DNA of 64,000 nucleotides from Acidobacteriota bacterium. GTDB taxonomy: Bacteria; Acidobacteriota; Vicinamibacteria; Vicinamibacterales; UBA2999. The stretch spans positions 8,682 to 72,681 of the forward strand of contig JANMDX010000256.1 of NCBI GenBank assembly GCA_031376505.1. The letters run 5' to 3'. The position numbers and the translations under genes are program-made. Position 1 is the stretch's first letter. Each line of letters begins with the position of its first letter. Positions 11,147-43,775 of the stretch are shown here, piece after piece. The notes beneath the pieces are model-generated. The model saw only the letters and a list, made by a program, of their open reading frames with translations. It was not told where the DNA came from and searched no databases.

Positions 11147-12217
11147 ATGTTGGCCGCAACTGCCGAAGCACAACTGATTGGGGATAGCCCCGCCGTCGCC
11201 GATCTCCGCACGGACATCGAGCGCACGGCACGGTCCGACGCCAAGGTGCTCATCACCGGGGAGAGCGGCGTGGGCAAGGAGCTGGTCGCACGGTCCGTAC
11301 ACGCCCACAGCTCGCGGGCGTCGAAGCCGTTTGTGGCGGTCAACTGCGCGGGCCTGCCGGAGACACTGCTCGAATCGGAACTGTTCGGGCACGTCAAGGG
11401 CAGCTTCACGGGCGCCTACCGTGACAAGCAAGGCAAGCTTGAAATGGCCGACGGCGGCACGCTCTTTCTCGATGAAGTCGGCGAGATGACCCTGCGCATG
11501 CAGGGCCTGCTGCTGCGTTTCCTCGAAACCGGCGAGTTGCAGAAGGTCGGCGCCGACCGGGTGCGCGCTACCGTCAGCATCCGCGTCATCGCCGCGACCA
11601 ATCGCAACCTGCGCGAGCTCATCGCGCAGCAGGCGTTCCGCGAAGACTTGTTCTACCGGCTCAACGTGATTCACCTGCTGGTGCCGCCCCTACGCGAGCG
11701 ACGCACCGACATTCCCGACCTCGTGCAGCGCTTTCTGCTGCGCAGCAGCGCGACTGGCCACTACGCGATGCGGTCGGTATCGCCAGAGGCCATGGACGCT
11801 CTGTGCAAGTACTCCTGGCCCGGCAACGTGCGCGAACTGCAGAACCTCGTCGAGCGGCTCGTCGTGACCTGCCAGCGCGAGATCGCGCTGCCCGACGACC
11901 TCCCGCCGGAGATCCGGCTGCTGCCCTTCGGCGCTTATCGGCCGCGGCGCGAACGCCGGCGCACGGTGTCCGACGAGCTGTACCAGAAGCTCGTCGACAC
12001 CGGCGAGTCGTTCTGGACGCTCGTCTATCCGCTCTACATGCAGCGTGAGATCACCAGAGGCCATCTGCGCGACCTCGTGCGGAAGGGCCTTCAGGAGGCC
12101 CGCGGCAACTATCGGATCGTCGTGCGCATCTTCAATATGCCGACGGGCGACTACAAACGGTTCCTCAACTTCCTGCGCACTCACGAGTGCCAGGTCTCGT
12201 TCAAGGAGTTCCGATGA
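11147..12217 (+). CDS. Sigma-54-dependent transcriptional activator without receiver/sensor domain (paralog 1)
   Basis: The AAA+ domain starts about 10 residues from the N-terminus: Walker A GESGVGKE, Walker [10 protein letters not shown], sigma-54 contact loop [26 protein letters not shown]-terminal HTH-like tail [25 protein letters not shown]. Confidence 0.9.
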   Translation: MLAATAEAQLIGDSPAVADLRTDIERTARSDAKVLITGESGVGKELVARSVHAHSSRASKPFVAVNCAGLPETLLESELFGHVKGSFTGAYRDKQGKLEMADGGTLFLDEVGEMTLRMQGLLLRFLETGELQKVGADRVRATVSIRVIAATNRNLRELIAQQAFREDLFYRLNVIHLLVPPLRERRTDIPDLVQRFLLRSSATGHYAMRSVSPEAMDALCKYSWPGNVRELQNLVERLVVTCQREIALPDDLPPEIRLLPFGAYRPRRERRRTVSDELYQKLVDTGESFWTLVYPLYMQREITRGHLRDLVRKGLQEARGNYRIVVRIFNMPTGDYKRFLNFLRTHECQVSFKEFR

Positions 12218-12855
12218 CGGCCCCCATGTTCGCAATCCTGTCGCTGTGCGCGTCGGTGTCCGTGTCGGCGCAGTCGAGCGGAGCACCAGTGCCCCGCCAG
12301 CCGGCGCCCGCGACGGCGGCCGCCCAGAAGCCGCCGGCAGTGCCGGACATACCTGACGGCGTCACGCCGCCGTCCGACTACGTGATCGGAGCCGAAGACG
12401 TGCTCGACATCATCGTCTGGCGCGAAAAAGACCTTTCGGCCGAAGTCATGGTGCGCCCCGACGGGCTGGTCTCACTGCCGCTGCTGAACGACGTGCAGGC
12501 CGGCGGACTCTCGGTGGAGCAGTTCCGCGAGCGCGTCGCCACCGCGGTCGCCAAGTTTGTCGAGTCACCGAGCGTGACGGTGATCGTGAAGACGATCAAC
12601 AGCCGCAAGGTGTACGTCATGGGCGAAGTCATGAAGCCCGGCCCCTATCCTCTGACCGCGCCAACCACCGTGCTGCAGTTGCTCGCAGCCGCGGGCGGAC
12701 CGACGCCGTTTGCGGACGTGAAAGACATCAGCATCGTGCGCACCGTCGGGGCCAAGACCGTGCGTCTGCCCTTCAACTACAAGGAAGTGGCACGCGGCCG
12801 GAAGATCGAGCAGAACGTGCTGCTTCGTCCCGGCGACACGGTGATTATCCCATGA
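12214..12855 (+). CDS. Polysaccharide export protein (Wza/EpsE-like, periplasmic/OM)
   Basis: Signal peptide MTAPMFAILSLCASVSVSAQ. Poly_export-type motif (YVIGAEDVLDIIVWREKDLSAEVMVRPDGLVSLPLLNDVQAGGLS) followed by an SLBB-like part. The ATG at 12214 overlaps the previous stop (ATGA). Confidence 0.9.
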   Translation: MTAPMFAILSLCASVSVSAQSSGAPVPRQPAPATAAAQKPPAVPDIPDGVTPPSDYVIGAEDVLDIIVWREKDLSAEVMVRPDGLVSLPLLNDVQAGGLSVEQFRERVATAVAKFVESPSVTVIVKTINSRKVYVMGEVMKPGPYPLTAPTTVLQLLAAAGGPTPFADVKDISIVRTVGAKTVRLPFNYKEVARGRKIEQNVLLRPGDTVIIP

Positions 12856-14132
12856 CGTCTTGTCGAGGCCTGATCGGTTTGGCGATCGTTGGATGCAGCC
12901 TCGCGATCGCGGACGCCGAAGCACAAACCGCGCGGCCGCCATCGTCAGGCCTTCAGGCCACTGGAAACATCTACGGCGGGTACGACGCCCCCCTCTTCGA
13001 CAACACCTCCACCAACGCCTTCAATCCCACGGGTCAGGGATTCGCTGGCGGAGATGTGAATCTAGACTACTTCCGGCCGGGCCGCCGGGTGTCGCTGGGG
13101 ACTGCGGTGATGGCGTCGAATCGGTACTACCCCGACTCCACGCCGTCGACGGCACCTTCGTACGTCGCGTCGCTCTCGCTCAGTTCTGTGAGTCGAGGAC
13201 GCTGGTCCTGGGTACTCGGACAGTACGCACAGTACGCTCCACTGTCGGCCGCCACGCTGTTTGCCGGCGGAGCGGCGAACCCGTCGCTGGGTGGCACTCT
13301 GAGCGGGGCGATTCTGGCTGGATCCACGAATTTTCAGATCTCGACCATTCGCCAGGTGGATATCAATACCGCGGCCAACGTGGCCTACTCCGTCAGCCGC
13401 CGGACGCAGGTGTCGCTGGCTACCATCGTCGGAACTCAGCTGCAAATCGACTCCACGCAGCCGAACGCGGTTCGGTATGACGGGCGCGTACGACTCTCAC
13501 GAGAAGTGACACGCAACATGCGGGCCTATGTCGGGTACGGACTGGCTGAGGTGCGCGTCCCGGCCCGGGGCGCGGCCCCAAGCTTCGCGACGCGGATTGA
13601 TGGCTACGACTTTGGAATCGACTTCTCGCGGCCGTTCCAACTGACACGAAACACGACCATCGGCATTCGAACGGGCGTCGTCAAGGTGCCCAATGCCGGC
13701 CGGTCTGAATTCACGGCGGTCGGGGCCGCAACCCTCGACTACAAGGTGACGGGCAGCTGGAGCGCCCAGCTCGCCGCCACTCGCGATGCGCGTTTCGTGC
13801 AGGCGTATCGAAACGCCGTGGTGTTCTCCGGCGTTTCGCTGTCAGTCGGCGGGCAGCTCGCGACCCGCCTGGGCGCCGCGCTAAACGCCAATTACTCATC
13901 GGGGCGCATCAACATCGCGCCCGCGCCTGTCGAATTCGACTCGGCCTCGACCTCCGCGCGGTTGCGATACGACGTCACGCGGACGGCTGGACTGTTCGCG
14001 GAATACAACCTGTTCCGGTCGCGCTTCGACGCGAGCAGCTCGCTATCTGGATACCCGACCGGGGCGTTCGGACGCCACGGTGTGCGCGCTGGACTGTCCC
14101 TTGGGGTCAGCCCGTTCAGTAGACGACCCTAG
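12852..14132 (+). CDS. Putative outer-membrane beta-barrel protein of the EPS locus
   Basis: Signal peptide (MTSCRGLIGLAIVGCSLAIADAEA). Alternating, Gly/Ser/Thr/Tyr-rich composition typical of OM barrels. Its position between the exporter and chain-length genes matches PEP-CTERM loci. ATGA overlap with the previous gene. Confidence 0.6.
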   Translation: MTSCRGLIGLAIVGCSLAIADAEAQTARPPSSGLQATGNIYGGYDAPLFDNTSTNAFNPTGQGFAGGDVNLDYFRPGRRVSLGTAVMASNRYYPDSTPSTAPSYVASLSLSSVSRGRWSWVLGQYAQYAPLSAATLFAGGAANPSLGGTLSGAILAGSTNFQISTIRQVDINTAANVAYSVSRRTQVSLATIVGTQLQIDSTQPNAVRYDGRVRLSREVTRNMRAYVGYGLAEVRVPARGAAPSFATRIDGYDFGIDFSRPFQLTRNTTIGIRTGVVKVPNAGRSEFTAVGAATLDYKVTGSWSAQLAATRDARFVQAYRNAVVFSGVSLSVGGQLATRLGAALNANYSSGRINIAPAPVEFDSASTSARLRYDVTRTAGLFAEYNLFRSRFDASSSLSGYPTGAFGRHGVRAGLSLGVSPFSRRP

Positions 14133-14150
14133 GTTTCGGAGACGACTGCC

Positions 14151-15719
14151 ATGCTGCCCGGAAAACACTATAAGTTCGACGATGTCGCCAGAATCGCCTG
14201 GCGAGGCAAGTGGCTGGTGATCGCGCCGGCCATCGTGACGTCGGTGCTGGCCGCGACCTACTTGCGCTTCGTGCCCGACGTCTACCGCGCCGATACGACG
14301 ATTCTGGTGGTGGCGCAACGCGTGCCGGACATCTACGTGAAGTCCACCGTCACGTCGAACATCCAACTCCGCCTGCAGTCCATCAGCCCGCAAATCCTCA
14401 GCCGCTCGCGGCTCGAACCCATCCTCTTGGATCTCAACCTGTATCCCGACCGCCGTCAGCGTGAACCGATGGAGGACGTGATCGCCTACATGCGCAGGCA
14501 GGTCGAAGTCATCACGTTGCGCGGCGACGCGTTCATGGTGGCTTACCAGTCCGAGAGCCCCGTGCTCGCGCAGCAGGTCACCGAACGTCTGGCCTCGCTC
14601 TTCATCGAGGAGAACCTGCGCGATCGCGAAGTGCAAGCGGAGCAGACAGGGCAGTTTCTCGAGTCGCAGCTGATCGACGCGCGCAAGCGGCTGATTGAGC
14701 ACGAGAAGCGACTCGAGGGGTTCCGAATGCGGAACGCTGACAGCCTGCCTGCTCAGGCGCAGAACAACTTCCAGGCCGTGCAAACGCTGCAGATGGAGGC
14801 GCAGGGCATCACCGACTCGCTCGAGCGTGACCGCGACCGCCGCCTGATCATCGAGCGATCGCTTGCCGACATCGGCGCCGTCCCCGACGACGCCCAGGGC
14901 AGTACTGCTCCGGTCGATCCCGGTGGCAGTGCCTCGACGGGGCCGGCCGCCACGGAGCTGGCCACTGCGAGGGAGGCACTGCGCAACTTGCGGACGCGGC
15001 TGAAGCCGGAGCACCCCGACGTGATCCGCGGCGAGCGCATCGTCGTGGAACTGGAGCAGAAGGCGCGCCAGGAGCAGGCGGCCATGGCGGCGGCCGCCGC
15101 CGGCGCGTCACCCACATCGACCTCCGTGCCCATGTCCGCCTCGGAGCGCCGCGCGCGAGCGCTTCGCGACGAGATGACCCAGATCTCCGCGACCATCCGC
15201 ACCAAGGAGGTCCGCCTCGCGAAGCTCCAGGACGAGCTGGCCAACTACCGGAGCCGGCTCGATGCGGCGCCGGCTCGAGAGTCGGAAATGACCGAATTGA
15301 TGCGCGACTACGGTACGCTCCAGTCCACGTATCAGAACCTTCTCGCCAAGCGCGAGGAGTCGAAGATCGCGACCAACGTCGAACGCCGTCAGATCGGCGA
15401 GCAGTTTCGGGTGCTCGACCCGCCGCGGCGGCCCGAGCGTCCCTACTCGCCCAATCGGCCGCTGGTGCAGGCCGCAGGTACTCTGCTCGGTCTGCTCCTG
15501 GGACTCGGCGTGATCGTGCTGCTCGAAATCCGTGACCAGACGTTGCACAAGGAAGCCGACGTGCTCGAGACCCTCGACCTTCCCGTCCTCGCCACCGTGC
15601 CGCGCATGCGCAACGCCGACGAGCGCCGCACGCATCTTCGGCAAGTGTTGGGATTGTCAGGCGCCGCCGTGGGCGGCATCGGCGTAGCGATCGCCATTGC
15701 CTGGAGCTGGCTCCGCTAA
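14151..15719 (+). CDS. Polysaccharide chain-length determinant protein (Wzz/EpsF-like)
   Basis: N-terminal TM (WLVIAPAIVTSVLAATYL), Wzz motif region, a long coiled-coil periplasmic part, and a C-terminal TM (LLGLLLGLGVIVLL). GGAGA Shine-Dalgarno sequence upstream. Confidence 0.85.
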   Translation: MLPGKHYKFDDVARIAWRGKWLVIAPAIVTSVLAATYLRFVPDVYRADTTILVVAQRVPDIYVKSTVTSNIQLRLQSISPQILSRSRLEPILLDLNLYPDRRQREPMEDVIAYMRRQVEVITLRGDAFMVAYQSESPVLAQQVTERLASLFIEENLRDREVQAEQTGQFLESQLIDARKRLIEHEKRLEGFRMRNADSLPAQAQNNFQAVQTLQMEAQGITDSLERDRDRRLIIERSLADIGAVPDDAQGSTAPVDPGGSASTGPAATELATAREALRNLRTRLKPEHPDVIRGERIVVELEQKARQEQAAMAAAAAGASPTSTSVPMSASERRARALRDEMTQISATIRTKEVRLAKLQDELANYRSRLDAAPARESEMTELMRDYGTLQSTYQNLLAKREESKIATNVERRQIGEQFRVLDPPRRPERPYSPNRPLVQAAGTLLGLLLGLGVIVLLEIRDQTLHKEADVLETLDLPVLATVPRMRNADERRTHLRQVLGLSGAAVGGIGVAIAIAWSWLR

Positions 15720-15733
15720 GCAACGCCACCACC

Positions 15734-16789
15734 ATGTATCACGAGTATTACGGGCTGACGGAACGCCCCTTCGACCTCACGCCGAACGCGAGATACCTGT
15801 ACCTCACGCCGATGCACCGCGAGGCGCTGGCGGCCGTTCAGTACGGCATTACGTCTCGACGCGGCATCATCGTCGTCACGGGCGAGGCTGGTACCGGCAA
15901 GACGACCATCGTGCGCGCGGCGCTGCGGGCCCTGCGAGGCGAGAACGTCCGACAGACGTACCTGAACAACCCGACGCTCACCCGCGACGAGTTCCTCCAG
16001 TTCCTCACGAAGGCATTCCGGCTCGGCGCCGACGCGGCCGAATCGAAGACCGACCTGCTCTCGAAGCTGACCGCCAGTCTGGCCAAGTCTCATGCGGCCG
16101 GGCAGGTGACGGCGCTTGTCGTCGACGAAGCGCAGAGCCTTCCGCACGAACTGCTCGAGGAGATCCGCCTGCTTGCAAACATCGAGACGTCGACGGCCAA
16201 GCTCCTGCAGGTCGTGCTCGTAGGACAGCCCGAGCTGGCCGATCGGCTCAACGACACGTCGTTGCGTCAGTTGAAACAGCGCGTCGCCATCCGCGCGACA
16301 CTGCGGCCACTCGACCTCCGCGCCACGGCGGCCCTTATCGCAGGCCGGATCCGGGTCGCTGGGGGGAATCCTCCCGAGGTCTTCACGCCTGCAGCGGTTG
16401 AGCTGGTCTACCGATACTCTGGAGGAGTGGCTCGCACGATCAACGTCATCTGTGACAACGCGCTCTTGAGCGGGTTTGCCGCGGAACAGCGGCCTGTGGG
16501 GCCGGTCATCGTCGAAGAAGTGTCCCGCGACTTCGATCTGGTTGCCAAAGCCGCGCCGGAGCGGCCCCAGTCGCGGACGCCGCAATCGGCTGACGCACCG
16601 CGTCCCACACTTGGCACCAGACCAGAGGGCGCGGCGGTGCCCGCGCGGCCGGCCGACGGGTCGGGTGGCCCCCCGGCGCCAGCGCTGACGGCCGGAGGGG
16701 CAATGATCGCGCCTGACGACGCCGGTTCGCGCGATCTCTTTACCAGCTTCGGCAAGCGCCGGTGGTTTTCGTTCAGGAAGAAATCATGA
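15734..16789 (+). CDS. ExeA-like AAA ATPase (putative secretion ATPase of PEP-CTERM loci)
   Basis: MYHEYYGLTERPFDLTPNARYLYLTPMHREAL, then Walker A GEAGTGKTT and Walker B LVVDEAQ. Low-complexity Pro/Ala tail. Confidence 0.85.
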   Translation: MYHEYYGLTERPFDLTPNARYLYLTPMHREALAAVQYGITSRRGIIVVTGEAGTGKTTIVRAALRALRGENVRQTYLNNPTLTRDEFLQFLTKAFRLGADAAESKTDLLSKLTASLAKSHAAGQVTALVVDEAQSLPHELLEEIRLLANIETSTAKLLQVVLVGQPELADRLNDTSLRQLKQRVAIRATLRPLDLRATAALIAGRIRVAGGNPPEVFTPAAVELVYRYSGGVARTINVICDNALLSGFAAEQRPVGPVIVEEVSRDFDLVAKAAPERPQSRTPQSADAPRPTLGTRPEGAAVPARPADGSGGPPAPALTAGGAMIAPDDAGSRDLFTSFGKRRWFSFRKKS

Positions 16790-17655
16790 GTCGTTTTGGA
16801 AAGGCCCTCGATCGCGCCAACAACGGACCCTTGGCGTCCCCAACGACGGCGCTTGCGCCCAGCGAGGCGCCGGACGCGTCGTTGTTCGACGCCGCGTGGG
16901 ACGTCACTGAGCCCGCGCCAGCCTCGGCCCGTCGAGTCACGCCGCCGGCGGCACCTGCAGTAGGGCCTGTGGGCATCAATTTCCATCCAGCGCTGGCGGA
17001 GAAGGTGGTCGCGGCCAACGGGGCGCCCACGGTGGCCCTGGAGCAATACCGGCGGCTCGCCGGCCGCCTGCACCAATGGCAACTGGACCACGAGGGCAAG
17101 CTCATCATGATCGTGAGCGCGGTGGCCGGCGAAGGCAAGACGTTGACATCGGTCAACCTCGCGCTGACGCTGAGTGGCTCGTACCAGCGGCGTGTGCTGC
17201 TCATCGACTGCGATTTGCGTCGGCCCACCGTGCACGCGGCGTTTCAGATTCCAAGCTCGCCAGGAGTGGCCGATATCGTTACGCGCGACGAGATACCCGT
17301 CGTGCGCGTGAGCGAGCGTCTCTCGGTCGTGCCGGCGGGGCACATGGACGGCGATCCCATGGGGGTGCTCACGTCCGACGCCATGACGGCCCTGCTCGTG
17401 CAGGCGCGGCGCGAGTACGACTGGGTGTTGCTCGACACCGCGCCGCTCGCGGCGCTGCCCGATGCGAATCTTCTGGCGGATCACGTGGACGGCGCAGTGC
17501 TGGTCGTGTCGGCAGGACGCACGGAATTCGCCCTCGTCGAGACGGCCGTGAAGGTGATCGGCCGCGAACGTCTGCTCGGTGTGGTGCTGAACGGCGTGGA
17601 TCCCAGGGACATGACCACGGCGAACTATCACGCCGACTACTACGGGAGGCGGTAG
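16786..17655 (+). CDS. Bacterial tyrosine (BY) kinase, CpsD/EpsG-like
   Basis: Walker A AVAGEGKT, Walker A' LLIDCDLRRP, Walker B VLLDTAP, and a C-terminal Tyr cluster (NYHADYYG). The ATG at 16786 overlaps the previous stop (ATGA). Confidence 0.85.
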   Translation: MSRFGKALDRANNGPLASPTTALAPSEAPDASLFDAAWDVTEPAPASARRVTPPAAPAVGPVGINFHPALAEKVVAANGAPTVALEQYRRLAGRLHQWQLDHEGKLIMIVSAVAGEGKTLTSVNLALTLSGSYQRRVLLIDCDLRRPTVHAAFQIPSSPGVADIVTRDEIPVVRVSERLSVVPAGHMDGDPMGVLTSDAMTALLVQARREYDWVLLDTAPLAALPDANLLADHVDGAVLVVSAGRTEFALVETAVKVIGRERLLGVVLNGVDPRDMTTANYHADYYGRR

Positions 17656-17682
17656 CACCCGCGCCGCCGGGTCCATTCACGC

Positions 17683-19071
17683 ATGACAGGTCAACTAAGC
17701 ACCAGGACGCCGTTCCTGATGCTGCTCGAGACGGTGATGATCGTGCTCGCGGTGGCGCTCGCGGCCGCGATCCGTCTGGGCGGGGCAGCTGCCGTCGATG
17801 TGCTGACGACGCCGCTTGGGCTGGCACGCGCTGGCGTCGTTGCGGCCACGTGCCAGCTCTGTCTGTTCTTTGCCGACATGTACGACCTTCGGGTGGTGGC
17901 TGACCGTCGCGAGCTGTTCGTGCGGCTGCTCAGGTCGCTGGCCGCCACCGCCGGTATTCTGGCGGTCGTCTACTACTGGTTCCCCCTGCTCATCGTGGGC
18001 CGGGGCGTGTTCCTGCTCACCACCGCGTTTGTCATCATCGCCATTCTGCTGTCGCGCGTCGGGTTCACGTGGGCCACCGCGCAGGTGCGGCCCGGAGAAC
18101 GCCTGCTGCTGATCGGCACGACCCCGGCGGCCGTCGCGCTGGCGCAGGAGATCCACGAGCGGCAGGCGGAGCTCGGCGTCGAGATCGTGGGGTTCGTCGA
18201 CTCGGATCCCGCCAAGGTCGGCGCGGTGCTCTTCAATCCCGGGATCATCGGCACCATCGAGGACATTCCGCACATCGTCAAGAGCCGCGAGGTCGACCGT
18301 GTGGTGGTGAGCCTCATCGACGCGCGCGGACGCCTGAACATGGACAAGCTGCTCGAGATCAAGCTGAGCGGCGTCACCTTCGATCATCTCGCCACGGTCT
18401 ACGAGGAGTACACCGGAAAGATCGCCGTCGAGAACCTGCGCCCGAGCTGGATGATCTTCTCCGAGGGCTTCCGCAAATCGCGCGTGCAGGTGGTGACCAA
18501 GCGCGCGCTTGACCTCGTGGCGTCGTCGCTCGGACTGTTGCTGGCGGCGCCCATCGCGCTCGTGGTCATGGCGCTCATCAAGCTCACGTCGCAGGGGCCG
18601 GTGTTCTATCGGCAGGAGCGCGTCGGCCAGCACGGGCGTACCTTCACCGTCTTGAAGTTCCGCTCGATGCGGGTGGACGCGGAGGAGACGACGGGCCCGG
18701 TCTGGGCACAGAAGAACGATACGCGGGCCACTCGGGTAGGCCGCGTCCTCCGGCGCACGCGCCTCGATGAAATACCGCAGCTCTGGAACGCCCTGCGCGG
18801 TGACATGAGCATGGTGGGCCCGCGGCCCGAACGTCCGGGCTTCGTGGCCGACCTCACGAAGCAGATCCCGTTTTACGGCCAGCGGCACGTCGTCAAGCCG
18901 GGCGTCACCGGGTGGGCCCAGGTGCGCTACACCTACGGCGCGAGCACGGAAGATGCTCTTCAGAAGCTGCAGTACGACCTCTACTACATCAAGAACATGT
19001 CGGTGGCTCTCGACATCTTCGTCATGGTCCAGACGGTGAAGACCGTGCTGCTGCGCCGAGGGGCGTCATGA
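17683..19071 (+). CDS. Undecaprenyl-phosphate sugar phosphotransferase (WbaP/EpsB-like priming transferase)
   Basis: Multiple N-terminal TM helices and a central Rossmann-like segment. C-terminal bacterial sugar-transferase domain (KRALDLVASS...GPVFYRQERVG..G..F...KFRSM...DEIPQLWNALRGDMSMVGPRP). Confidence 0.9.
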   Translation: MTGQLSTRTPFLMLLETVMIVLAVALAAAIRLGGAAAVDVLTTPLGLARAGVVAATCQLCLFFADMYDLRVVADRRELFVRLLRSLAATAGILAVVYYWFPLLIVGRGVFLLTTAFVIIAILLSRVGFTWATAQVRPGERLLLIGTTPAAVALAQEIHERQAELGVEIVGFVDSDPAKVGAVLFNPGIIGTIEDIPHIVKSREVDRVVVSLIDARGRLNMDKLLEIKLSGVTFDHLATVYEEYTGKIAVENLRPSWMIFSEGFRKSRVQVVTKRALDLVASSLGLLLAAPIALVVMALIKLTSQGPVFYRQERVGQHGRTFTVLKFRSMRVDAEETTGPVWAQKNDTRATRVGRVLRRTRLDEIPQLWNALRGDMSMVGPRPERPGFVADLTKQIPFYGQRHVVKPGVTGWAQVRYTYGASTEDALQKLQYDLYYIKNMSVALDIFVMVQTVKTVLLRRGAS

Positions 19072-29080: not shown

Positions 29081-29121
29081 TGCCGTCTACCCCAGTGCTC
29101 TTGACGACCAGCTCATATCCG

Positions 29122-34299: not shown

Positions 34300-34570
34300 C
34301 GGCCGACGGGCGCAGCTGCTGGGCAGCGGAACGCGAGACTGTGACAGATGGCCGCCATGTGTGCTCGGGTGTGCAGCCGGCCGCGCGACACGCGCACGGC
34401 GACGAAATTGTGCGGCGTCGAGCCCGCAGGTGCCGGATGAATTGCGCAGCAAACCGCCGACAACGGCCCGATCGTTACGATATCATACAGCGTATTCTGT
34501 CGCTCACCATGTCAGGCCTCCCGATTCCGACGCCACATTTGCGTCGGTCCATTCCGCGGTCGAGGCGTTC

Positions 34571-36333: not shown

Positions 36334-37517
36334 GGGTGCTGTACCTCACGCACCGACTTCCATATGCACCTAACCGCGGAGATCGCATTCGCGCTTTTCA
36401 CTTGCTCGAAGGCCTGCGCCAGGCCTTCGAGGTCGAGGTGGTGTCGCTCGTGCACGACGACCAGGAAGCCTCGCACGCCAGCGATGTCGCGGCGCGTGGA
36501 ATGAGGGTGTCCACAGCGCCGGTCGCCGGAGTATCGCGCTGGCTGCGCGCGCCATTGGCCTTGCCAGGCACCGAGCCCCTCACGCACGTGCTGCTCGACG
36601 CGCCCGCAATCGACGCCCTGCTGCGGCGCGTCGTTGCGGCGCGACGTCCGTCGGTAGTGGTGGCGTTCTGCAGCGGCATGGCGAAGTTCGCGCTCCGCGA
36701 GCCGCTGGCGCAAATCCCGTACGTGCTCGACATGGTGGATGTCGACTCGCAGAAGTGGCAGCAGCTCGGCGAGGTGGCCCGGCCGCCCAAACGCTGGGTG
36801 TATCGCCGGGAAGCGCGGGTGTTGTCGGCCTTCGAAACGCACGCCACTGAACGAGCCGTGACCACTCTGGTCATCAACGAGAAGGAACGTGCGGTGCTGA
36901 GCGCCATGGCGCCGACCGCCGACGTACGCGTGCTGCCCAACGGCGTGGACGTGGACGACTTCAGGCCCACAGGCCAGGCGCCGCCCTCGCGCACGGTGGT
37001 ATTCTGCGGCGTCATGAACTACGCGCCCAATGAAGCGGGCGCGTCGTGGCTCGTCACAAAGGTATGGCCGTCGGTTGTGGCACGACACCCTGACGCGCAG
37101 CTCGAGATCGTCGGGAGCGAGCCGTCAGTGGCCGTACGCGCGCTGGCGGCGCCGGGCGTGACCGTGACCGGGAAGGTGCCCCATACGCGCGACTACCTGT
37201 GGCGAGCCGCTGTCTCGGTGGCCCCACTCCACACCGCGCGCGGCCTGCAGAACAAGGTGCTCGAAGCACTTGCGGCCGGAGTGCCAGTCGTGACGACGAC
37301 CGCGGTGCGCGAGGGGCTCCCCGACGGGGTCGGCCGAGGCTGCACCGTGGCGGATGCCGCCGACCAATTTGCGGCAAGTATCGTGCGCCTGCTTGACATG
37401 AGCCCCGACGAGCGGCGCTCGCTCGCCTCCAGCGTCGACCTGTCAGGCCTGTCGTGGCACGGGCCGCGAGCGCAGATGATCGACGTCGTGCGAAGCGCGG
37501 CCGGGATTCACGTGTGA
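36330..37517 (+). CDS. Glycosyltransferase (PEP-CTERM/EpsH-associated sugar transferase type)
   Basis: VRVLYLTHRLPYAPNRGDRIRAFHLL N-terminus characteristic of this family; C-terminal GLQNKVLEALAAGVPVVTT. The GTG at 36330 overlaps the previous stop (GTGA). Confidence 0.85.
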   Translation: MRVLYLTHRLPYAPNRGDRIRAFHLLEGLRQAFEVEVVSLVHDDQEASHASDVAARGMRVSTAPVAGVSRWLRAPLALPGTEPLTHVLLDAPAIDALLRRVVAARRPSVVVAFCSGMAKFALREPLAQIPYVLDMVDVDSQKWQQLGEVARPPKRWVYRREARVLSAFETHATERAVTTLVINEKERAVLSAMAPTADVRVLPNGVDVDDFRPTGQAPPSRTVVFCGVMNYAPNEAGASWLVTKVWPSVVARHPDAQLEIVGSEPSVAVRALAAPGVTVTGKVPHTRDYLWRAAVSVAPLHTARGLQNKVLEALAAGVPVVTTTAVREGLPDGVGRGCTVADAADQFAASIVRLLDMSPDERRSLASSVDLSGLSWHGPRAQMIDVVRSAAGIHV

Positions 37518-37535: not shown

Positions 37536-39818
37536 CTACGGCAAGGCCGCCAGTTGCGCCACGGCGTCGGCCGCGCCAGGGAACTTGCGGTCGAGTGCCA
37601 ACGCCGCCTTGAGCGATGCCTTGGCGCGAGCTGGCTCGTTGTTCTTTGACAGCGCCAGCCCGAGCCGGTAGTGGTACTCGGGATTGTCTGGGGCGAACTT
37701 CACGGCGTCTTCGAAGGCAGCGACCGAGAAGCCGAAGAGGTTGCGCCGGTAGTAGATGAGCCCGAGCGTGTCGCTCACCTCTGGCGATTCCGGCGACCCC
37801 ACCTTCGCCGTCTGCGCGAGTTGCAGCGCCACGTCGAGGTTCTCGCCGTCTTCCACTTTCATCCACGCCAGGTTGTTGGCCGCGACCACGGCAGACGCAT
37901 CGACCCGGAGCACGGCTTCGTAGGCCTTCTTTGCCTCGTCGCGCCGGTTGGCCATGTGGTGCAGCACGGCCACGACGGTCTTGGGCCCGACTGCGGTCGG
38001 CTGCAGGGCGGCCAGCCGCTGGAACTCTCGCAGCGCGTCCTCGAGGCGCCGATCGGCCACGTAGAGCTGCCCGAGCATCGAGTACGCCTCGAGCAGCGCC
38101 GGGTCGGCCTCGATGGCGCGCTTCAACAATGCCTCGGCGGTCTTGAAGTCACGGGTCTCGCCGTAGGCGCGCGCGGCCAGCACGAGCGACTTCGCGTCGG
38201 TGGGCGCTTTTTCGAGTGCGGTGTTCGCCGCCGCGAGCGCGCCCGCCACATTGCCGGAGGCGAGGCGGCTCGCCACCAGACCTCCGAGGGCTTCGTAAGA
38301 CGACGGCTGGGACACGAGGGCGGCGGCAAAGCGCTGCTCCGCCGCTTTCGGGTCGCGCCGCACGAGGCGAATCTGCCCCTCGAGCAGCTGTACGCGGGGC
38401 TCGTTGGGCAACTGCGTGGCGACCGGTCGCAGTTCGTTGGCGGCGTTGTCGGCCTGACCGGCGCCCACGTACGCGCGCACGAGTGCCAGCCGCGCTTCCA
38501 GGTGATTGGGCGCGTTGCGCACAGCCTGTTGCGCAACATCGATGGCTTTTTCGTACTGGCGCTCGGCAAGGTGGATCCGCGACAACTCGACCTGCGCCGG
38601 CACGTAGTTGGGTTCGAGGCGCAACACCTCGAGCAGCGAGGCCCGCGCTTCGCCGGCGCGCCGCCGCTGCAGCAGCGCCTGCGCCAGCCAGAAGTGGCCG
38701 GCTTCGTACTTGCTGTCAACAGCGACCGATTGCTGCAGGTCGGTCAGCGCCTCGTCGATCTTGCCGGCATCGAGCCGGAAGCGGCCCCGAAGCGCGAGGG
38801 CCTTGGCCGAGCGCGGCTGGGCCTTCAACAGCTCGTCAAGGTGGGCGTGCGCGGCAGGCTGGCGGCCTGCCATGTAGTCGATGGTGGCAAGCCGCAACTT
38901 CGCGTCGGCGAACTGGCGGCGGTCGCCTGACATCTTCTGGAGCCGCTCGACAGCTTCCGTCTCGCGGTTGGTCGCGAGCAACACTTCCGTGAGCAGGAAG
39001 CCGGCAGTGGCATCGCCCAGATCGTCGGCGAGCGAACGCAGATGGGGTTCAGCCTTCGACGCCTGATTCAGATTGACGTACAGCGATGCCAGCGCCCGCA
39101 GCGCCAGCGCGTTCTTTGCGTCGAGCGCCAGCGCTGACGCAAAGGCCTTTTCCGCGCCGGCCATGTCGCCAGACTGGAGCCGGTAGCTGCCAAGCGCCAG
39201 GTGCGCCTCGGGCGAGGTCGGGTCGACGGCGATTGCCTGGGCGTAGGCGGCCTCGGCCTCGGGCAGGCGGCCGCGCACACTCTGAATCGCCGCAAGCGTA
39301 GCGTGCGTGAGCCCGCGGTTCGGATCGAACTCGATCGCCCTCTTCAGTGACTCGGCCGCCGCCTCGTAGTCCTTCATGCCGGCCAGCGCATTGCCGAGCA
39401 GCACGTGCGCGGCAGCGTTCTTGGGCTCTCGTTCGATGACCTTCCGAGCCCGGGCCCGGGCGTCTTCGTAACGGGTCGCAAGCAGAAGATACTGGCCGGC
39501 CATCAGCTGCACCTTCGGTTCGTCGGGCAGGAGGTCGGCAGCGCGCACGTACTCGGGATACGCGGCTTCAGGGTTTCTGGAGTTCGAATACGCCTCGCCA
39601 AGCTGGAAACGCGCGCGGCCAAACGCCGGATCGATCTGAATGGCGGAGCGATACTCGATGATCGCCTCGGGGTACTGGCGTTGGGCGGCATATGCGTCGC
39701 CGCGTGTGAGGTGCTGCTGCTTCTCTGTGGCCGGATCACTCGAACAGGCCGCCGAGTACGCCACGAGTGCGGCGATCGCCACGAAGCGTGGCGCGCAAGA
39801 CAGACTGCGGGAAGACAT
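37536..39818 (-). CDS. prsT: PEP-CTERM system TPR-repeat lipoprotein
   Basis: Lipoprotein signal (FVAIAALVAYSAAC). The whole protein is TPR repeats. It sits directly downstream of EpsI and the exosortase. Start at ATG 39818. Confidence 0.85.
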   Translation of the reverse strand: MSSRSLSCAPRFVAIAALVAYSAACSSDPATEKQQHLTRGDAYAAQRQYPEAIIEYRSAIQIDPAFGRARFQLGEAYSNSRNPEAAYPEYVRAADLLPDEPKVQLMAGQYLLLATRYEDARARARKVIEREPKNAAAHVLLGNALAGMKDYEAAAESLKRAIEFDPNRGLTHATLAAIQSVRGRLPEAEAAYAQAIAVDPTSPEAHLALGSYRLQSGDMAGAEKAFASALALDAKNALALRALASLYVNLNQASKAEPHLRSLADDLGDATAGFLLTEVLLATNRETEAVERLQKMSGDRRQFADAKLRLATIDYMAGRQPAAHAHLDELLKAQPRSAKALALRGRFRLDAGKIDEALTDLQQSVAVDSKYEAGHFWLAQALLQRRRAGEARASLLEVLRLEPNYVPAQVELSRIHLAERQYEKAIDVAQQAVRNAPNHLEARLALVRAYVGAGQADNAANELRPVATQLPNEPRVQLLEGQIRLVRRDPKAAEQRFAAALVSQPSSYEALGGLVASRLASGNVAGALAAANTALEKAPTDAKSLVLAARAYGETRDFKTAEALLKRAIEADPALLEAYSMLGQLYVADRRLEDALREFQRLAALQPTAVGPKTVVAVLHHMANRRDEAKKAYEAVLRVDASAVVAANNLAWMKVEDGENLDVALQLAQTAKVGSPESPEVSDTLGLIYYRRNLFGFSVAAFEDAVKFAPDNPEYHYRLGLALSKNNEPARAKASLKAALALDRKFPGAADAVAQLAALP

Positions 39819-39831
39819 GGCGGGTGGACTC

Positions 39832-40473
39832 CTATTCGGGAACGAACCGCGACAGCAACGGAAAGATATCGGCGGCAAGAGCTTCGGCACGGCGGCTCGC
39901 CGCGCTGGCGTCTTCGCCTCGGGCCACAGGGCTCAGCACGCGCACAAGCGCGCCGTCGGTGCGGTTGCGCTGGGCGGCATCCCACACGAGGTAGGCCTTG
40001 CTCCAGTACTCGCTCGCGACGGTGCGGCCGCGCCCTTGGTACCAATACAGCGCCACTTGCCGGTCTTCGCCCTTCTGGATCACATAACGATTCACCTCGA
40101 CCGCACCCGAAGAGCCGGCGGCAATCGTGGTGCGGCCCGCTTGCACCGGCACCCAGCCCGCGCCCGGCAGACAGTTCATCGGAGAGTGGATGGTGTCGCC
40201 CTGCCGCTGGCTGCGGTAGTACCCGACAAACAGGCCGACCTGCGCCCCGGGAGACGCGTACGCACGCAACAGATAGTCATCCACGCCGAGCACGCGCATC
40301 GTGTCGAAGTCGAGAGGAGCGGCGTCGGTGCCCGTCCAGCGGCCGATCGCCATTGGAAAATCCGCCAACGCGTCGCGAGGCGCGGTGGCATCGGCCCGTT
40401 CTGATGCAGCAAGCGCGGCCGCGGCCGCACTGAGCGTCAGGAAGACCACGAAGAGTCGGGTGGTTAACGTCAT
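39832..40473 (-). CDS. epsI: Exosortase-associated EpsI family protein
   Basis: Signal/anchor, then DFPMAIGRWTG...DDYLLRAY....VGLFVGYYRSQRQGDTIHSPMNCLPGAGW, the hallmark EpsI core. Confidence 0.85.
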   Translation of the reverse strand: MTLTTRLFVVFLTLSAAAAALAASERADATAPRDALADFPMAIGRWTGTDAAPLDFDTMRVLGVDDYLLRAYASPGAQVGLFVGYYRSQRQGDTIHSPMNCLPGAGWVPVQAGRTTIAAGSSGAVEVNRYVIQKGEDRQVALYWYQGRGRTVASEYWSKAYLVWDAAQRNRTDGALVRVLSPVARGEDASAASRRAEALAADIFPLLSRFVPE

Positions 40474-40477
40474 GCGG

Positions 40478-41371
40478 TCACACCGACGCGCTACTGGCGG
40501 GTACGCCGGAAGGCAGCACGGGGTCTGGCGTGATGCGATTCACAAGTTCGCGCAGCGCGAAGAGCAGGGCAAGGGCCGCTACGAACACGAGCCAGCCCGA
40601 GACCCCATGAAGAAATCCTTCAGCCACGTCGGCGCCGTAGCGATGGGCCGCGATCCCTGTGCCCGCGACGCGCAGGCCGTTGGTCAGCACGGCAATCGGC
40701 ACGGTCGAGACCGCGAGCAGGCAGCGCACCCAAAGCCGCGAGTCCATGAAGTAGGCATACACGACACTCAGCGTGAGCAGCGACACGAGCGAGCGGATGC
40801 CGCTGCACGCCTCGGCCACTTCGAGAGTGGTGTTGGCCAGGATCATCACGTTGCCTTCTCGTAGCACCGGCACGCCGAACGCCTCGAGGCCGGCCTGACC
40901 GACCTGTGAGGCCAGCAGCTGCAGCGGCAGCGCGACCTGGTTGAAGAGCAATGCCGGCAAGGGAATCATCAGCAGGAGGAAGGCCAGCGGAAACGCGAGC
41001 AGGCGCAGATGCGCCCATCCAAAAGCGAACAGCACCACACCCACAAGCACGCCCACCATCGCTACGCGCGTGAGGAACAGCTCGGCGCCAAGCGTGCCCG
41101 CCCCAAGCAGCAGCAGGCTGCCGACGACCACGGCGAAGCCAAGCGCACTGGGTCTCAACGCCGCCGCGGTAAGCGCCGCGCGGCGCTCCCATGCCAGGAA
41201 CAGCGCGACCGGCACGACCAGAAAGCCGTGGGAGTAGTTGTAGTCGGTGGACCAGTCGGCAACCAGATTGCGCGCGACGTCGAAGAACACGGCCGCAAAG
41301 GCAACGCCCGCCAGCACCGCCATGACGGCTGCGCGAGAGGGCGGCCCGGTGCGCAATGGGAGAATCGTCAC
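40478..41371 (-). CDS. Exosortase (EpsH/XrtA-like)
   Basis: DWSTDYNYSHGFLVVPVALFLAW, catalytic-Cys motif EACSGIRSL, NGLRV and HGVSGW motifs, 8 TM helices. The start is uncertain: GTG 41371 is chosen, with alternatives ATG 41323 and TTG 41449 (the latter would overlap the upstream hairpin tail). Confidence 0.9.
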   Translation of the reverse strand: MTILPLRTGPPSRAAVMAVLAGVAFAAVFFDVARNLVADWSTDYNYSHGFLVVPVALFLAWERRAALTAAALRPSALGFAVVVGSLLLLGAGTLGAELFLTRVAMVGVLVGVVLFAFGWAHLRLLAFPLAFLLLMIPLPALLFNQVALPLQLLASQVGQAGLEAFGVPVLREGNVMILANTTLEVAEACSGIRSLVSLLTLSVVYAYFMDSRLWVRCLLAVSTVPIAVLTNGLRVAGTGIAAHRYGADVAEGFLHGVSGWLVFVAALALLFALRELVNRITPDPVLPSGVPASSASV

Positions 41372-41440
41372 TCTCGAGGAAGTATCGGTCGGAACGAGGC
41401 GATTTCGTAGCGATGAATGGCGGCTCGCGGACGGCCGCGG

Positions 41441-41474
41441 AAATGACAACGGCGAGGCGCTGACGCGCCCCGCC
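41441..41474 (-). terminator. Stem-loop (possible attenuator/terminator) between the PEP-CTERM gene and the exosortase
   Basis: The minus-strand RNA forms GGCGGGGCGC-GUCA-GCGCCUCGCC, a 10-bp stem with one G-U pair, followed by GUUGUCAUUU. Confidence 0.4.
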
Positions 41475-41508: not shown

Positions 41509-42219
41509 CTAGGCGGTCTGAGCCGCGGCCCGACGGCGACGGCGACGAGCCGCCGCGGCGCCGGCCAGGCCAGTCGCGAGCAACACCATGCTGGCTGGTT
41601 CCGGCACGACGGTGGGCGCCGTGTTCACGAACGACTCGCTATTGCCTTCGCCGCCAATCGACTGCACGTGTGTGCCGATGCGCAGGTCGCCGGTCGACAG
41701 GCTGGTCAGCAGGCTGGCGAACGTGGAGCCCTGGTTGAGCGTGAAGATCAGCCTCAGCCACTCACCCGGGTTGACGCCGTTTGGCGATACCGGTGGCCGG
41801 GCGCCGACGCCGTCGGTGGCCCGGAACTGGATGCCGTTTCCGCCCGGCAGGTTCCGGTTACCGGCGAGCTCTCTGAAGCTCACGCCGCTTGACCCGTTCA
41901 TGCTGCTCAGCGCGATCAGCGTCGGATTGGGTTGGTCGAAATATATCTGGGTAATCGAGGACGCGCCCGGGCCCGTGTTGCTGAACAGGAACTCCACCGA
42001 GCCATTTCCCAGGTCGGTCAGTGCGGCACTGAGCTGCGACTGCCCGATGGCGCAGCTGGACGCGGCGTTGTTGGTCACGCACGAGAATCCGAGCGTGGCA
42101 GCCTCGGTCCGGGCCGTTCCGAGCGCAAACACCGTGGCAACCGCGGCGGCCGACAACGCAATCCGGGAAACTGACATTCGCATCACCAAGGCGCTCATCC
42201 TTTTCTCTACGGTAGCCAC
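41509..42219 (-). CDS. PEP-CTERM sorting-domain protein (putative exosortase substrate)
   Basis: C-terminus VVPEPASMVLLATGLAGAAAARRRRRRAAAQTA = PEP motif + TM helix + Arg cluster. N-terminal signal (…RIALSAAAVATVFALGTARTEA). The start is ambiguous: GTG 42219, or ATG 42198/42183/42177. Confidence 0.9.
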   Translation of the reverse strand: MATVEKRMSALVMRMSVSRIALSAAAVATVFALGTARTEAATLGFSCVTNNAASSCAIGQSQLSAALTDLGNGSVEFLFSNTGPGASSITQIYFDQPNPTLIALSSMNGSSGVSFRELAGNRNLPGGNGIQFRATDGVGARPPVSPNGVNPGEWLRLIFTLNQGSTFASLLTSLSTGDLRIGTHVQSIGGEGNSESFVNTAPTVVPEPASMVLLATGLAGAAAARRRRRRAAAQTA

Positions 42220-42274
42220 ACTTCACAGAGGAAGATCCGCCTGCGGTGCGGTGTCCGTTGACGCATATTGAACA

Positions 42275-42289
42275 GCAATAACGCTGCCA
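42275..42289 (-). promoter_or_regulatory. Candidate sigma-54 (-24/-12) promoter for the PEP-CTERM gene/exosortase operon
   Basis: The minus strand reads TGGCAGCGTTATTGC (TGGCA-N6-TTGC, canonical spacing). It lies 56 nt upstream of the first possible start codon. Confidence 0.65.
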
Positions 42290-42469
42290 ACTGTCCACGA
42301 CCGTGTACCTACGCGCCGTATTGAGGGTTTCCAGGCGATGGGTTCAAGGGGAGGGCCAGATGCAAGTCATGGTCGCGCATTTTGGGAAAAATAATCGTGC
42401 CCTGCGCAGACTAGTAAGGCTCGGCTGCCGCGGTTGGGCGCTCGGGCGCTTGACACCTCATGCCAGGTG

Positions 42470-42483
42470 CACGCAGCTGCGTG
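42470..42483. promoter_or_regulatory. 14-bp perfect palindrome CACGCAGCTGCGTG in the divergent control region
   Basis: Perfect dyad, about 180 bp upstream of the sigma-54 motif at 42275-42289 and about 130 bp upstream of the activator start at 42615. Confidence 0.3.
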
Positions 42484-42614
42484 GTTCAGGTCTTCCGTCC
42501 AGACTTTGTTCTGCTCTTTCCTGACAGATAGTCGCTCGATTCTTGTTCTTGTCCGCAAACTGCTGATATTCTGACGTGGTAGTGGTCCGTTCAGACTACG
42601 GGTCGACCAAATCA

Positions 42615-43775
42615 ATGCAGCCAGTCGACGCTCCCCGAGACATACCGGCGCCCCAGCCTCGCCAGCAGGTCCTGATTGGACGGAGCCAGGCTCTGAAGGT
42701 CGTACATCAGGAGATCGAGTACGCCGCGCGGTCCGACGCGAAGGTGCTTGTCACGGGGGCCAGTGGCGTGGGCAAGGAAGTGGTCGCGCACCTCATCCAC
42801 ACCCGCAGCCGGCGGCGCCACGCGCCGATGCTTACGATCAACTGTGCGGCCATGCCTGACTCGCTGCTCGAGTCCGAGCTCTTCGGACACGCCCGGGGTA
42901 GCTTCACCGACGCGTATCGCGACAAGCGCGGGCTCTTTGAAGCCGCCAATGGCGGCACGGTGTTCCTCGACGAAGTCGGCGAGATGTCACTCCGCATGCA
43001 GGCGTTGCTGCTCAGATTTCTCGAAACCGGGGAGATTCAGCGGGTGGGCGACGAGCGCAATCGCGCCAACGTCAACGTCCGCGTCGTGGCCGCGACGAAT
43101 CGGCGTCTGCCCGAACGCATCCAGAGCGGCGACTTCCGCGAAGACCTCTACTATCGGCTCAATGTGATTCACATCACGATTCCGCCGCTGCGCGAACGTC
43201 GCGACGACGTGGCGCCGCTGCTCGAGCACTTCCTGCGGCAATTCGCGGTCGAACACGGCGTGCCTCTGCCGGCAACCGCCGACGACGCGGTGACCGCGCT
43301 CGAAGCGTACGACTGGCCCGGCAACGTTCGAGAGCTCCGCAACATCGCCGAGCGTCTGACCTGCCGCTGCCCCGGCGGCGTGATTCGCATCGAAGATCTG
43401 CCGGCGGAAGTACGGGCTGTGGCTGTGCCTCCCGACGCGCCGGGGACGAAGCCAGGCGCGACCGCTCCGGCGCAAGCCTTGCTCGATCGGATCCTGCTCA
43501 GGGGTGAATCGTTCTGGGATGTGGCGTACGAACCGTTCATGGCCCGCGACTTGACGCGTGAGGACGTGCGGCACCTGGTGCGCGTGGGGCTCGAACAAAC
43601 CCGCGGGAACTACAAGGCGCTGGTGCAGCTGTTCAACATGGAACCGCAGGACTACAAGCGGTTCCTGAATTTCCTGCGCAAATACGGCTGCCACATGCCG
43701 TTCCAGCGATTCCGGATGGCGCCGGGTCGCGGCGACAGCGGCGCAGCCGGTTCGAGCGGTAAAGAGCCCGTCTGA
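42615..43775 (+). CDS. Sigma-54-dependent transcriptional activator without receiver/sensor domain (paralog 2)
   Basis: About 25 residues precede the AAA+ core: Walker A GASGVGKE, Walker [10 protein letters not shown], contact loop [26 protein letters not shown]-terminal tail [25 protein letters not shown] matches paralog 1. ATG 42615 is preferred over GTG 42576. Confidence 0.9.

Follow-up and report, generated by a model that had tools for sequence, protein, structure and literature searches.

The 64,000-nucleotide stretch of contig JANMDX010000256.1 analysed here (hereafter the window, about 67% G+C), from a member of the Vicinamibacterales (Acidobacteriota), carries a gene region at 11147-43775 that, judged by its gene content and profile scores, is a real but divergent XrtA-type PEP-CTERM/exosortase exopolysaccharide (EPS) system. 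Its two ends are marked by a pair of sigma-54 activators, that is, enhancer-binding proteins (EBPs), designated EBP1 and EBP2, which have no sensor domain, and EBP2 is adjoined by two proteins, REC-PilZ1 and REC-PilZ2, that join a receiver (REC) to a PilZ domain. Comparison with related genomes supports the view that the activator pair and the REC-PilZ genes make up a module that is conserved across the Vicinamibacterales in physical association with XrtA/PEP-CTERM EPS genes. The reading favoured here, and held to be reasonably probable, is that the EPS system is transcribed from sigma-54 promoters by EBP1 and EBP2, whose C-terminal tail would bind a GACT-type element upstream of these promoters, while the activators themselves would be controlled in trans, with the REC-PilZ proteins as the favoured candidates.

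Genes were called in the window by third-position G+C and then scanned with NCBIfam and Pfam; the taxonomic placement fits the names on close homologs and the presence of an ADOP-family permease. The comparison set consisted of 95 loci (L numbers below), fetched and compared with the window proteins by tblastn; they are mostly contigs of metagenome-assembled genomes (MAGs) with shared ancestry, and counts of loci are not counts of independent events. The counts of REC/EBP fusions, promoters and gene orders refer to these fetched loci, and the search for PrsK and PrsR covered the 64-kb window. As for the sigma-54 promoters, the window was scanned for -24/-12 sites (background, 0.17 sites per kb), and the sites were then compared across loci; an XrtA-based metagenome scan returned five short loci only, of no use for judging promoter conservation.

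The two activators and the sigma-54 promoters

EBP1 (11147-12217, plus strand) consists of an AAA+ core with a GSFTGA loop and a helical C-terminal domain of ~85 residues, and EBP2 (42615-43775, plus) is its paralog, with a GSFTDA loop and the same tail; the two are 52% identical over 348 aa, tail included, which bears out an earlier note on this DNA that had described them as a paralogous pair made of the ATPase core and a common tail only. Pfam recognises just Sigma54_activat and AAA_lid_14 in each (PF00158, 228 and 224 bits), and in-frame stops at 11042 and 42564, just upstream of the two genes, leave no room for an N-terminal domain; hundreds of homologs are likewise 355-390 aa long. Both proteins have what a sigma-54 activator requires, namely the AAA+ domain, intact Walker A and B motifs and a GAFTGA-type loop in which the F and T of the sigma-54-contacting segment are kept; with a predicted DNA-binding role for the tail, they fall into the class of sensor-less EBPs, built of an AAA+ and a DNA-binding domain with no regulatory domain in cis.

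Neither protein is, on these scores, a truncated PrsR: against the PrsR model (TIGR02915) they reach 275.1 and 270.2 bits, with a cut-off of 502.6, the match is confined to the AAA+ core (positions 135-384 of 445), and the NorR, NtrC and NifA models outscore PrsR for both. The PrsK model (TIGR02916) has no match, and the genes scanned over all 64 kb include no histidine kinase and no REC-containing sigma-54 activator, so that the absence previously reported for the island extends to the window. No trustworthy REC-containing EBP was found among the fetched loci either. Two REC-AAA+-tail proteins, P0035 (497 aa) and L050 2964-4001, were considered as signs of a PrsR-like ancestor and rejected; they lie on metagenome contigs of ~4 kb, the change to EBP1-family sequence falls exactly on a conserved motif in each (LDEVGEM or WPGNVREL), and they are probably chimeric assemblies.

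Other relatives of the pair were noted in passing. L047 encodes at ~11372 (plus) a degenerate EBP-like paralog of 271 aa, with neither a GAFTGA-type loop nor a tail, that adjoins a REC-PilZ gene and EBP1/EBP2; further sensor-less paralog classes with variant tails occur in L055 (~7290, minus; DYKRFLAFLSQHDCHLPFHDFR) and L032 (~2347, minus; DYKRFMNFLAAHECTVDFREFR), so that the lineages of this family number more than two per genome.

Regarding the promoters, the earlier note had listed sigma-54 sites in the region, and conserved ones were found before EBP1, the PEP-CTERM gene and REC-PilZ1. The promoter of the EBP1-led operon (CGGCCTGAGTCTTGCT, 11026-11041, plus) lies ~120 nt before the EBP1 start and is recognised at a similar position in 43 of 75 loci; across orthologous loci the GG and TTGC positions are fixed and the spacer varies. 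That of the PEP-CTERM gene (TGGCAGCGTTATTGCT, 42274-42289, minus) is found at the same place in the two other loci with this layout, L090 (TGGCATCCCCGTTGCT) and L092 (TGGCTAAAGAATTGCT), hence in three loci of three, and that of REC-PilZ1 (TGGCCGATGGTTTGCA, 44471-44486, minus), ~45 nt before the real start of the gene, keeps its position in 15 of 19 loci. Dependence of PEP-CTERM genes on RpoN has been described in Proteobacteria (PMC1569441, PMC9850573).

Upstream of the EBP1 promoter, 134 nt from its -24 element, there is a candidate activator site (AGACTATTGTT, 10891-10901, plus), the only match of its kind in the window. It belongs to an element family with the consensus GACT-W-W-W-G-T-Y-C (GACTWTTGTYC-type). 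Of 39 non-redundant loci, from close and distant clades, about three quarters have the element between -121 and -151, and it recurs although the surrounding intergenic sequence cannot be aligned between clades; the 6-mers of the element are enriched 24-78x over background, and some copies are palindromic, e.g., GACTTAAGTC. A related element at 42499-42512, read as AAGTCTGG on the minus strand and as CCAGACTTTGTTCT / CCAGACTT(TGTTCT) on the plus strand, stands ~215 nt upstream of the -24 of the PEP-CTERM promoter and ~110 nt before EBP2 begins, and is also kept in L090 and L092. AAGTCTGG is present only twice in the window, here and at 44538-44545 (minus), 59 nt upstream of the REC-PilZ1 -24, and in all close-clade loci this second copy is found at -58 to -71. 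Elements of the GACT type also precede the sigma-54 sites by the PEP-CTERM genes of L093 and L094 and the PilZ-EBP1 operon of L001.

Three promoters thus combine, by sequence, a -24/-12 site with an upstream site, and the GACT-type element is a good candidate for the site of the activators; the comparative data are strongest in two respects: GG and TTGC stay in place while the spacers change, and the GACT element returns in clades with intergenic regions that cannot be aligned. These data support a sigma-54 regulon that includes the EBP1-led export operon, the PEP-CTERM substrate and REC-PilZ1, encoded together with the two activators.

Two other features of these intergenic regions were recorded. 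A conserved block lies downstream of the EBP1 -12 (window ~11055-11100), with GCCCGACAATTTACCTGCTGGTGCAGGTCA in relatives and an inverted repeat CCTGC...GCAGG; Rfam returned nothing on the whole window, hence no known riboswitch in this conserved leader. A scan of 42220-45540 for sigma-70 and terminator consensus sequences also gave nothing, a result that says nothing on the promoter of EBP2 itself.

A conserved module around a variable slot

The TGA of EBP1 overlaps the ATG of the exporter gene (wza) in an ATGA at 12214-12217, and because of this stop/start overlap EBP1 is read as the first cistron of the export operon. Among 71 EBP1-type genes with enough downstream sequence, 52 are followed on their own strand, at a distance of at most 3 kb, by export/assembly genes in the same order as in the window and down to 64% identity. 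On the other side, a REC-PilZ gene lies no more than 2.5 kb away from 25 of the 27 EBP2-type genes, either convergent as in the window or, in more distant genomes, as RECPilZ(+) EBP2(-) divergent from EBP1(+). L090 and L092 repeat the window order, with the PrsT-like, EpsI, exosortase and PEP-CTERM genes on one strand, EBP2 on the other and then REC-PilZ; L093 and L094 have EBP2-type paralogs (64-66% identity) in the order GGDEF-EBP-REC, with an HD-GYP gene and PEP-CTERM genes alongside, in L095 such a paralog stands beside TPR and PEP-CTERM genes, and EBP1 of L001 is preceded by REC and PilZ as separate genes. A genomic association of the activator orthologs with EPS and PEP-CTERM genes, the absence of which had been named as a ground for refuting the proposal, was found for both members of the pair.

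The pair does not, however, form the first and last genes of the island, as had been thought. In L006, whose flanks are 86-89% identical to the window (blastn), window positions 12218 to ~42490 are replaced by ~93 nt (L006 3841-3933): the first match ends exactly at the EBP1 stop and the second resumes at ~42,490-42,527, which makes the island a 30.3-kb insertion/deletion, absent from close relatives that keep the module. L006 retains EBP1, EBP2, REC-PilZ1, REC-PilZ2 and their promoters, together with the element upstream of EBP2, and ten further loci are island-less in the same manner (ECF sigma, Ser/Thr kinase, EBP1, EBP2, REC-PilZ1, REC-PilZ2, FKBP); the promoters are kept in island-less loci, and because the module persists in these relatives, it is not dedicated to this island alone. 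The XrtA island fills the EBP1-EBP2 gap in the window, L005, L007, L009-L012 and L019/L090, and in L013 (10300-16000) the gap holds a short-chain dehydrogenase and a formyltransferase/AMP-binding/luciferase-like/PCP gene of the non-ribosomal peptide synthetase (NRPS) type. Between EBP1 and EBP2 there is a slot of variable content: the EPS island, nothing or an NRPS-like gene. A mobile-element origin of the island was considered and set aside: no integrase was found, and the composition is uniform.

Control of the island by a canonical PrsK/PrsR pair located outside the 64 kb searched, with EBPs that regulate something else and are neighbours by an accident of insertion, is highly improbable. 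The persistence of the EBPs around an island that behaves as an indel would fit such an accident, but the order of EBP1 and the export operon is kept down to 64% identity with stop and start codons overlapping, EBP2-type paralogs adjoin PEP-CTERM genes in unrelated layouts, and the same upstream element occurs at the promoters of the PEP-CTERM gene, the EBP and REC-PilZ; the lack of a trustworthy REC-containing EBP in the fetched loci points the same way, as does the definition of PrsK/PrsR as part of a proteobacterial profile.

The pairing itself raises another possibility, that EBP1 and EBP2 act only together, as a hetero-hexamer of the HrpR/HrpS kind in which one subunit is the target of a trans-acting regulator. 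The divergence of the paralogs is similar (52%, against 55-65% for HrpR/HrpS), both lack a sensor domain, their predicted recognition-helix stretch is identical, and their genes lie next to each other, in tandem where the island is missing and divergently in distant genomes. Obligate partnership is nonetheless doubtful, since in many EBP1 loci the 9 kb upstream contain no EBP2 (which may, however, be located past the far end of the island), and EBP2-type paralogs occur alone beside PEP-CTERM genes.

Two observations on the flanks stand apart. Directly upstream of EBP1 (7319-10804), the window encodes an extracytoplasmic function (ECF) sigma factor (TIGR02999) and a Ser/Thr kinase of 959 aa with TPR repeats. 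Synteny of both with EBP1 extends through the close clade (L005-L021, L091) and is absent from distant genomes; they could act as an upstream input. In addition, multiple overlapping L006 blastn matches at window ~50270-50670, inside an S8 protease gene (48761-50833), indicate an internal repeat region.

Control of the activators and the REC-PilZ proteins

REC-PilZ1 (43786-44445, minus; open reading frame to 44487) and its paralog REC-PilZ2 (44602-45330, minus), which has the same motifs, were confirmed next to EBP2, as had been proposed. The PilZ motifs RxxxR and DxSxxG (RRWPRKR, DVSYGG) are present in both and conserved across 26 aligned homologs, with the exception of the degenerate one of L095; by sequence this motif set fits a receptor of cyclic di-GMP (c-di-GMP), and the Pfam PilZ score is 21.1 bits (gathering cut-off 22.5), for REC-PilZ1 only. 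The receiver is atypical (Pfam REC, 26.9 and 27.5 bits; gathering cut-off 30.2): the acceptor Asp is kept (TDV), and the residues that a phosphorylatable receiver also needs are lost, the Lys position being S, E, A or G and the Thr/Ser position G, so that this domain possibly works independently of phosphorylation.

In the favoured reading, EBP1 and EBP2 would both bind the GACT-type element through the tail, which is proposed because the predicted recognition-helix stretch (10 residues) is the same in the two proteins. Since both would bind the element upstream of EBP1, this gene would be activated by its own product or by EBP2, giving a feed-forward or positive-feedback switch for the EPS and the PEP-CTERM protein. 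Control in trans is proposed because the EBPs have no sensor domain, and the best candidates would be the sigma-54-dependent REC-PilZ proteins; by analogy with PspA-PspF and HrpV-HrpS, we infer that they may couple the level of c-di-GMP to EBP activity. A link to this second messenger is also suggested by the conserved PilZ motifs, by the GGDEF, REC and HD-GYP genes that flank EBP2-type paralogs beside PEP-CTERM genes, by the REC and PilZ genes adjoining EBP1 in L001 and by the PilZ-EBP fusion known from Myxococcus.

The tail deserves separate mention. It is predicted as a helical domain with five main helices and pLDDT above 90, and a search with its profile yields 1,305 representatives of clusters at 50% identity; in species-representative genomes it gives at least 583 places, of which the best 80 are almost all Acidobacteriota/Vicinamibacterales MAGs. 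The tail-only homolog search and the exhaustive representative search were dominated by gene fragments, and domain architectures were read from Pfam on selected hits: there, full-length members are nearly all sensor-less, and one truncated member, P0326, has a partial GAF domain. An ~85-aa C-terminal domain family of about 1,300 representatives, outside the coverage of Pfam and the PDB, is thereby defined. The earlier note had called the tail unusual; it is indeed common to both EBPs and has no Pfam or PDB entry, and the reading is now corrected to a divergent DNA-binding domain, to which the predicted structure points weakly.

Several results weigh against the favoured reading, and the first group concerns this same tail. 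Pfam finds nothing at E<=10 in the last ~105 and ~124 aa of EBP1 and EBP2, respectively; the tail profile has no match among PDB sequences; Foldseek against the PDB gives nothing significant, with a Fis-DNA complex in third place (E=8.8); and hhalign of the tail with Fis is not significant (E=0.21), though the conserved RGN is in register with the RGN of Fis. Its assignment to HTH_8, the Fis-type helix-turn-helix (HTH), was rejected on these grounds. Regarding the promoters, no -24/-12 site is recognisable, at the threshold used, in 32 of the 75 EBP1 loci; the upstream element is short and its distance from the -24 varies (-59, -134, -215); and the link that it makes between the three promoters was recognised post hoc. 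rpoN was not seen in the 64-kb window. A putative contact between REC-PilZ and the EBPs is suggested by gene neighbourhood, and PilZ proteins often act post-translationally on the polysaccharide machinery. Finally, the module, to judge from the island-less relatives, has a function beyond the island of the window.

One alternative is possible, if on the unlikely side: the EBPs would always be active once made, and control would be purely transcriptional, by a cascade or positive feedback at the sigma-54 promoter of EBP1, perhaps with input from the ECF sigma factor and the Ser/Thr kinase; REC-PilZ would be an output of the regulon, e.g., a c-di-GMP-dependent post-translational regulator of EPS synthesis or export, and would not regulate the EBPs. 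REC-PilZ1 and EBP1 both lie behind sigma-54 promoters, as this would require, the genes of the ECF sigma factor and the kinase are syntenic with EBP1 in the whole close clade, and PilZ domains commonly gate polysaccharide synthases (BcsA, Alg44). This synteny, though, is confined to the close clade; moreover, REC-PilZ stays with EBP2 in genomes that have no island, genes for c-di-GMP turnover and signalling (GGDEF, REC, HD-GYP) flank EBP2-type paralogs, and a natural fusion of the two functions is known in Myxococcus MXAN_2902, an EBP with a fused PilZ domain (PMC8316039).

If c-di-GMP is involved, the EBPs might sense it directly, like FleQ, VpsR or BerB, with no partner protein. The clustering of c-di-GMP genes around family members would agree with this, as would the existence of c-di-GMP-binding EBPs that control EPS; against it, inspection of the EBP sequences shows that the N-terminal LFRS motif of FleQ is absent, that the R-N pair after Walker A reads R-S in EBP1 and H-L in EBP2, and that an Arg-rich linker (RPRRERRR) is present only in EBP1. 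Binding of the FleQ type is, from these residues, unlikely, and direct sensing as a whole is given little credence.

The favoured reading, trans control of a sensor-less pair, can be extended to a bolder form, offered as speculation and thought unlikely to hold in full: a new EBP switch for XrtA/PEP-CTERM matrix production in the Vicinamibacterales, possibly a hetero-oligomeric sensor-less pair with an unclassified DNA-binding tail, gated in trans by pseudo-receiver-PilZ adaptors that read c-di-GMP, and self-amplifying because EBP1 and the adaptor are both in the regulon. If true, it would be a route of control from PilZ to AAA+ not described for any enhancer-binding protein.

The EPS genes and their relation to known systems

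The hallmark genes attributed to the island in the earlier note are all where it had placed them (NCBIfam, open reading frames). In the models that it had named, run over the 64-kb window, PEP_CTERM, the exosortase/XrtA models and EpsI_fam score above the cut-off, PEP_TPR_lipo and the PrsR model below it, and PrsK has no match. Exosortase XrtA (40478-41449, minus) has 212.5 bits with TIGR03109 (cut-off 208) and 212 with TIGR02602 (105.6), and carries the catalytic Cys in the motif ACSGIRS; EpsI (39832-40473, minus) has 149.5 bits (42.8). The PEP-CTERM substrate protein (41509-42198, minus; open reading frame to 42219) scores 26.3 with PEP_CTERM (16) and 28.3 with PF07589 (20.7) and ends with VPEP...RRRRRR; from an alignment with L090, the ATG at 42198 is taken as the most likely start.

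The EpsB_2 sugar transferase, the deacetylase, the FemAB protein and the stp1 glycosyltransferase also exceed their curated NCBIfam cut-offs. For the other components, the best model is again that of the XrtA system, with scores below the cut-off: exporter, 144 bits (cut-off 180); chain-length determinant, 273.8 (278.9); ExeA-like ATPase, 249.7 (324.5); tyrosine kinase, 143.9 (230.7); amidotransferase, 626.7 (816.9); O-ligase-like protein, 166.8 (188.1). As for the PrsT-like TPR lipoprotein, which has a lipobox-like signal and adjoins EpsI and XrtA, TIGR02917 gives 288.8 (312.2) over model positions 5-599 of 899. The system is called divergent because these seven genes have XrtA models as their best match yet score below the cut-offs.

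The export/assembly operon (12214-22163, plus) encodes the Wza-like exporter, a 426-aa protein, the chain-length determinant, the ExeA-like ATPase, a tyrosine autokinase, the EpsB_2 priming transferase, the deacetylase, the FemAB-like protein and an acyltransferase_3. The 426-aa protein (12852-14132, plus), encoded after the exporter and before the chain-length determinant, is matched by neither Pfam nor NCBIfam, and its position is kept in most related loci with an identity of only 21-64%. There follows a block on the minus strand (22179-34452) with two paralogous secreted fn3/PKD/MopE proteins, the AsnB-type amidotransferase, a GT4 glycosyltransferase, the O-ligase-like protein and a PcRGLX-like protein of 904 aa. 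The paralogs (22179-24200 and 24450-26861, minus) have in common an N-terminal motif, LVQAGNFAYQG-FTLP, after the signal peptide and have no PEP-CTERM tail; candidate sigma-54 sites precede them (24262-24277 and 26952-26967, minus), found in the -24/-12 scan of the window only. The 904-aa protein (31738-34452, minus) has weak PcRGLX-like (rhamnogalacturonan-lyase-like) domains and may be an enzyme that modifies or degrades polysaccharides. A second GT4 glycosyltransferase, a hexapeptide acetyltransferase and the stp1-family glycosyltransferase occupy 34500-37517 (plus; frame plot and NCBIfam), and the PrsT-like lipoprotein, EpsI and XrtA occupy 37536-41449 (minus), a layout that L090 and L092 share.

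The Vicinamibacterales rank with the most abundant bacterial groups of soil, and few members are in culture; soil aggregation and life in biofilms are likely shaped by the exopolysaccharide and the PEP-CTERM surface proteins that these bacteria make. Literature searches returned no study of PEP-CTERM/exosortase regulation outside the Proteobacteria, and no paper describing a module of an activator pair with REC-PilZ. What is proposed here is a concrete regulon, with two named activators, three promoters located to the base, a candidate binding motif and candidate c-di-GMP adaptors. The idea of a distinct, uncharacterised control module, put forward in the earlier note, is supported in part by the conserved pair, the REC-PilZ proteins and the promoters with their element; it needs amendment in that the module is not dedicated to the island and that the sensor-less form was already known.

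The first term of comparison is the PrsK/PrsR/PrsT module, which had been taken as established for PEP-CTERM systems in general. It is described in Proteobacteria, and that statement was over-general: Haft et al. 2006 restricted the profile to this phylum and left other regulators to be found elsewhere (PMC1569441), and because the profile is proteobacterial, the absence of PrsK/PrsR from the window is unsurprising in itself. In both cases (Haft 2006 and the floc work on Aquincola and Zoogloea for the proteobacterial one), PEP-CTERM genes are preceded by long intergenic regions that contain sigma-54 promoters with an upstream site, the XrtA/EPS genes have an EBP gene nearby, and the gene of a PrsT-like TPR lipoprotein adjoins that of the exosortase; in contrast, the window has no PrsK, its EBPs have no receiver domain and a tail with no recognisable Fis-type HTH, and they form a paralogous pair with one member at the head of the export operon.

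The sensor-less form, which was confirmed, is not unprecedented, being the architecture of PspF and of HrpR/HrpS (PMC3105312). HrpR and HrpS of Pseudomonas syringae, with HrpV/HrpG, are likewise adjacent paralogous EBPs with no regulatory domain in cis, for which control in trans is expected (PMC3105312); there, however, the target is the type III secretion system via hrpL, whereas the pair of the window has REC-PilZ neighbours and no HrpV/HrpG homolog, and a hetero-hexamer is at most predicted. PspF, too, is an EBP made of AAA+ and DNA-binding domains only, and its activity is set by a partner from its own regulon, PspA; the differences are a PspF-model score of 254 for the EBP (cut-off 443.6), the lack of a PspA-like gene and a different type of tail.

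With FleQ, VpsR, BerB, EpsI/Nla24 and MXAN_2902, the system has in common the link between an EBP, c-di-GMP and EPS/biofilm genes, and MXAN_2902 combines PilZ and EBP in one protein; here PilZ is on a separate REC-PilZ protein, FleQ-type motifs are absent from the EBPs, and the dependence on c-di-GMP is inferred. PixA, a PilZ-REC response regulator of Myxococcus, resembles the REC-PilZ proteins in joining PilZ and receiver in one protein with no adjacent histidine kinase; in the proteins of the window the order is REC then PilZ, the receiver has lost Lys and Thr/Ser, and the partners are an EBP and EPS genes, not motility genes. Set beside these systems, what appears new is, on the sequence comparisons, the combination of a paralogous sensor-less pair, an unclassified tail, REC-PilZ partners and defined cis elements, and also its conservation in an abundant, poorly studied soil order and its position flanking a slot of variable cargo.

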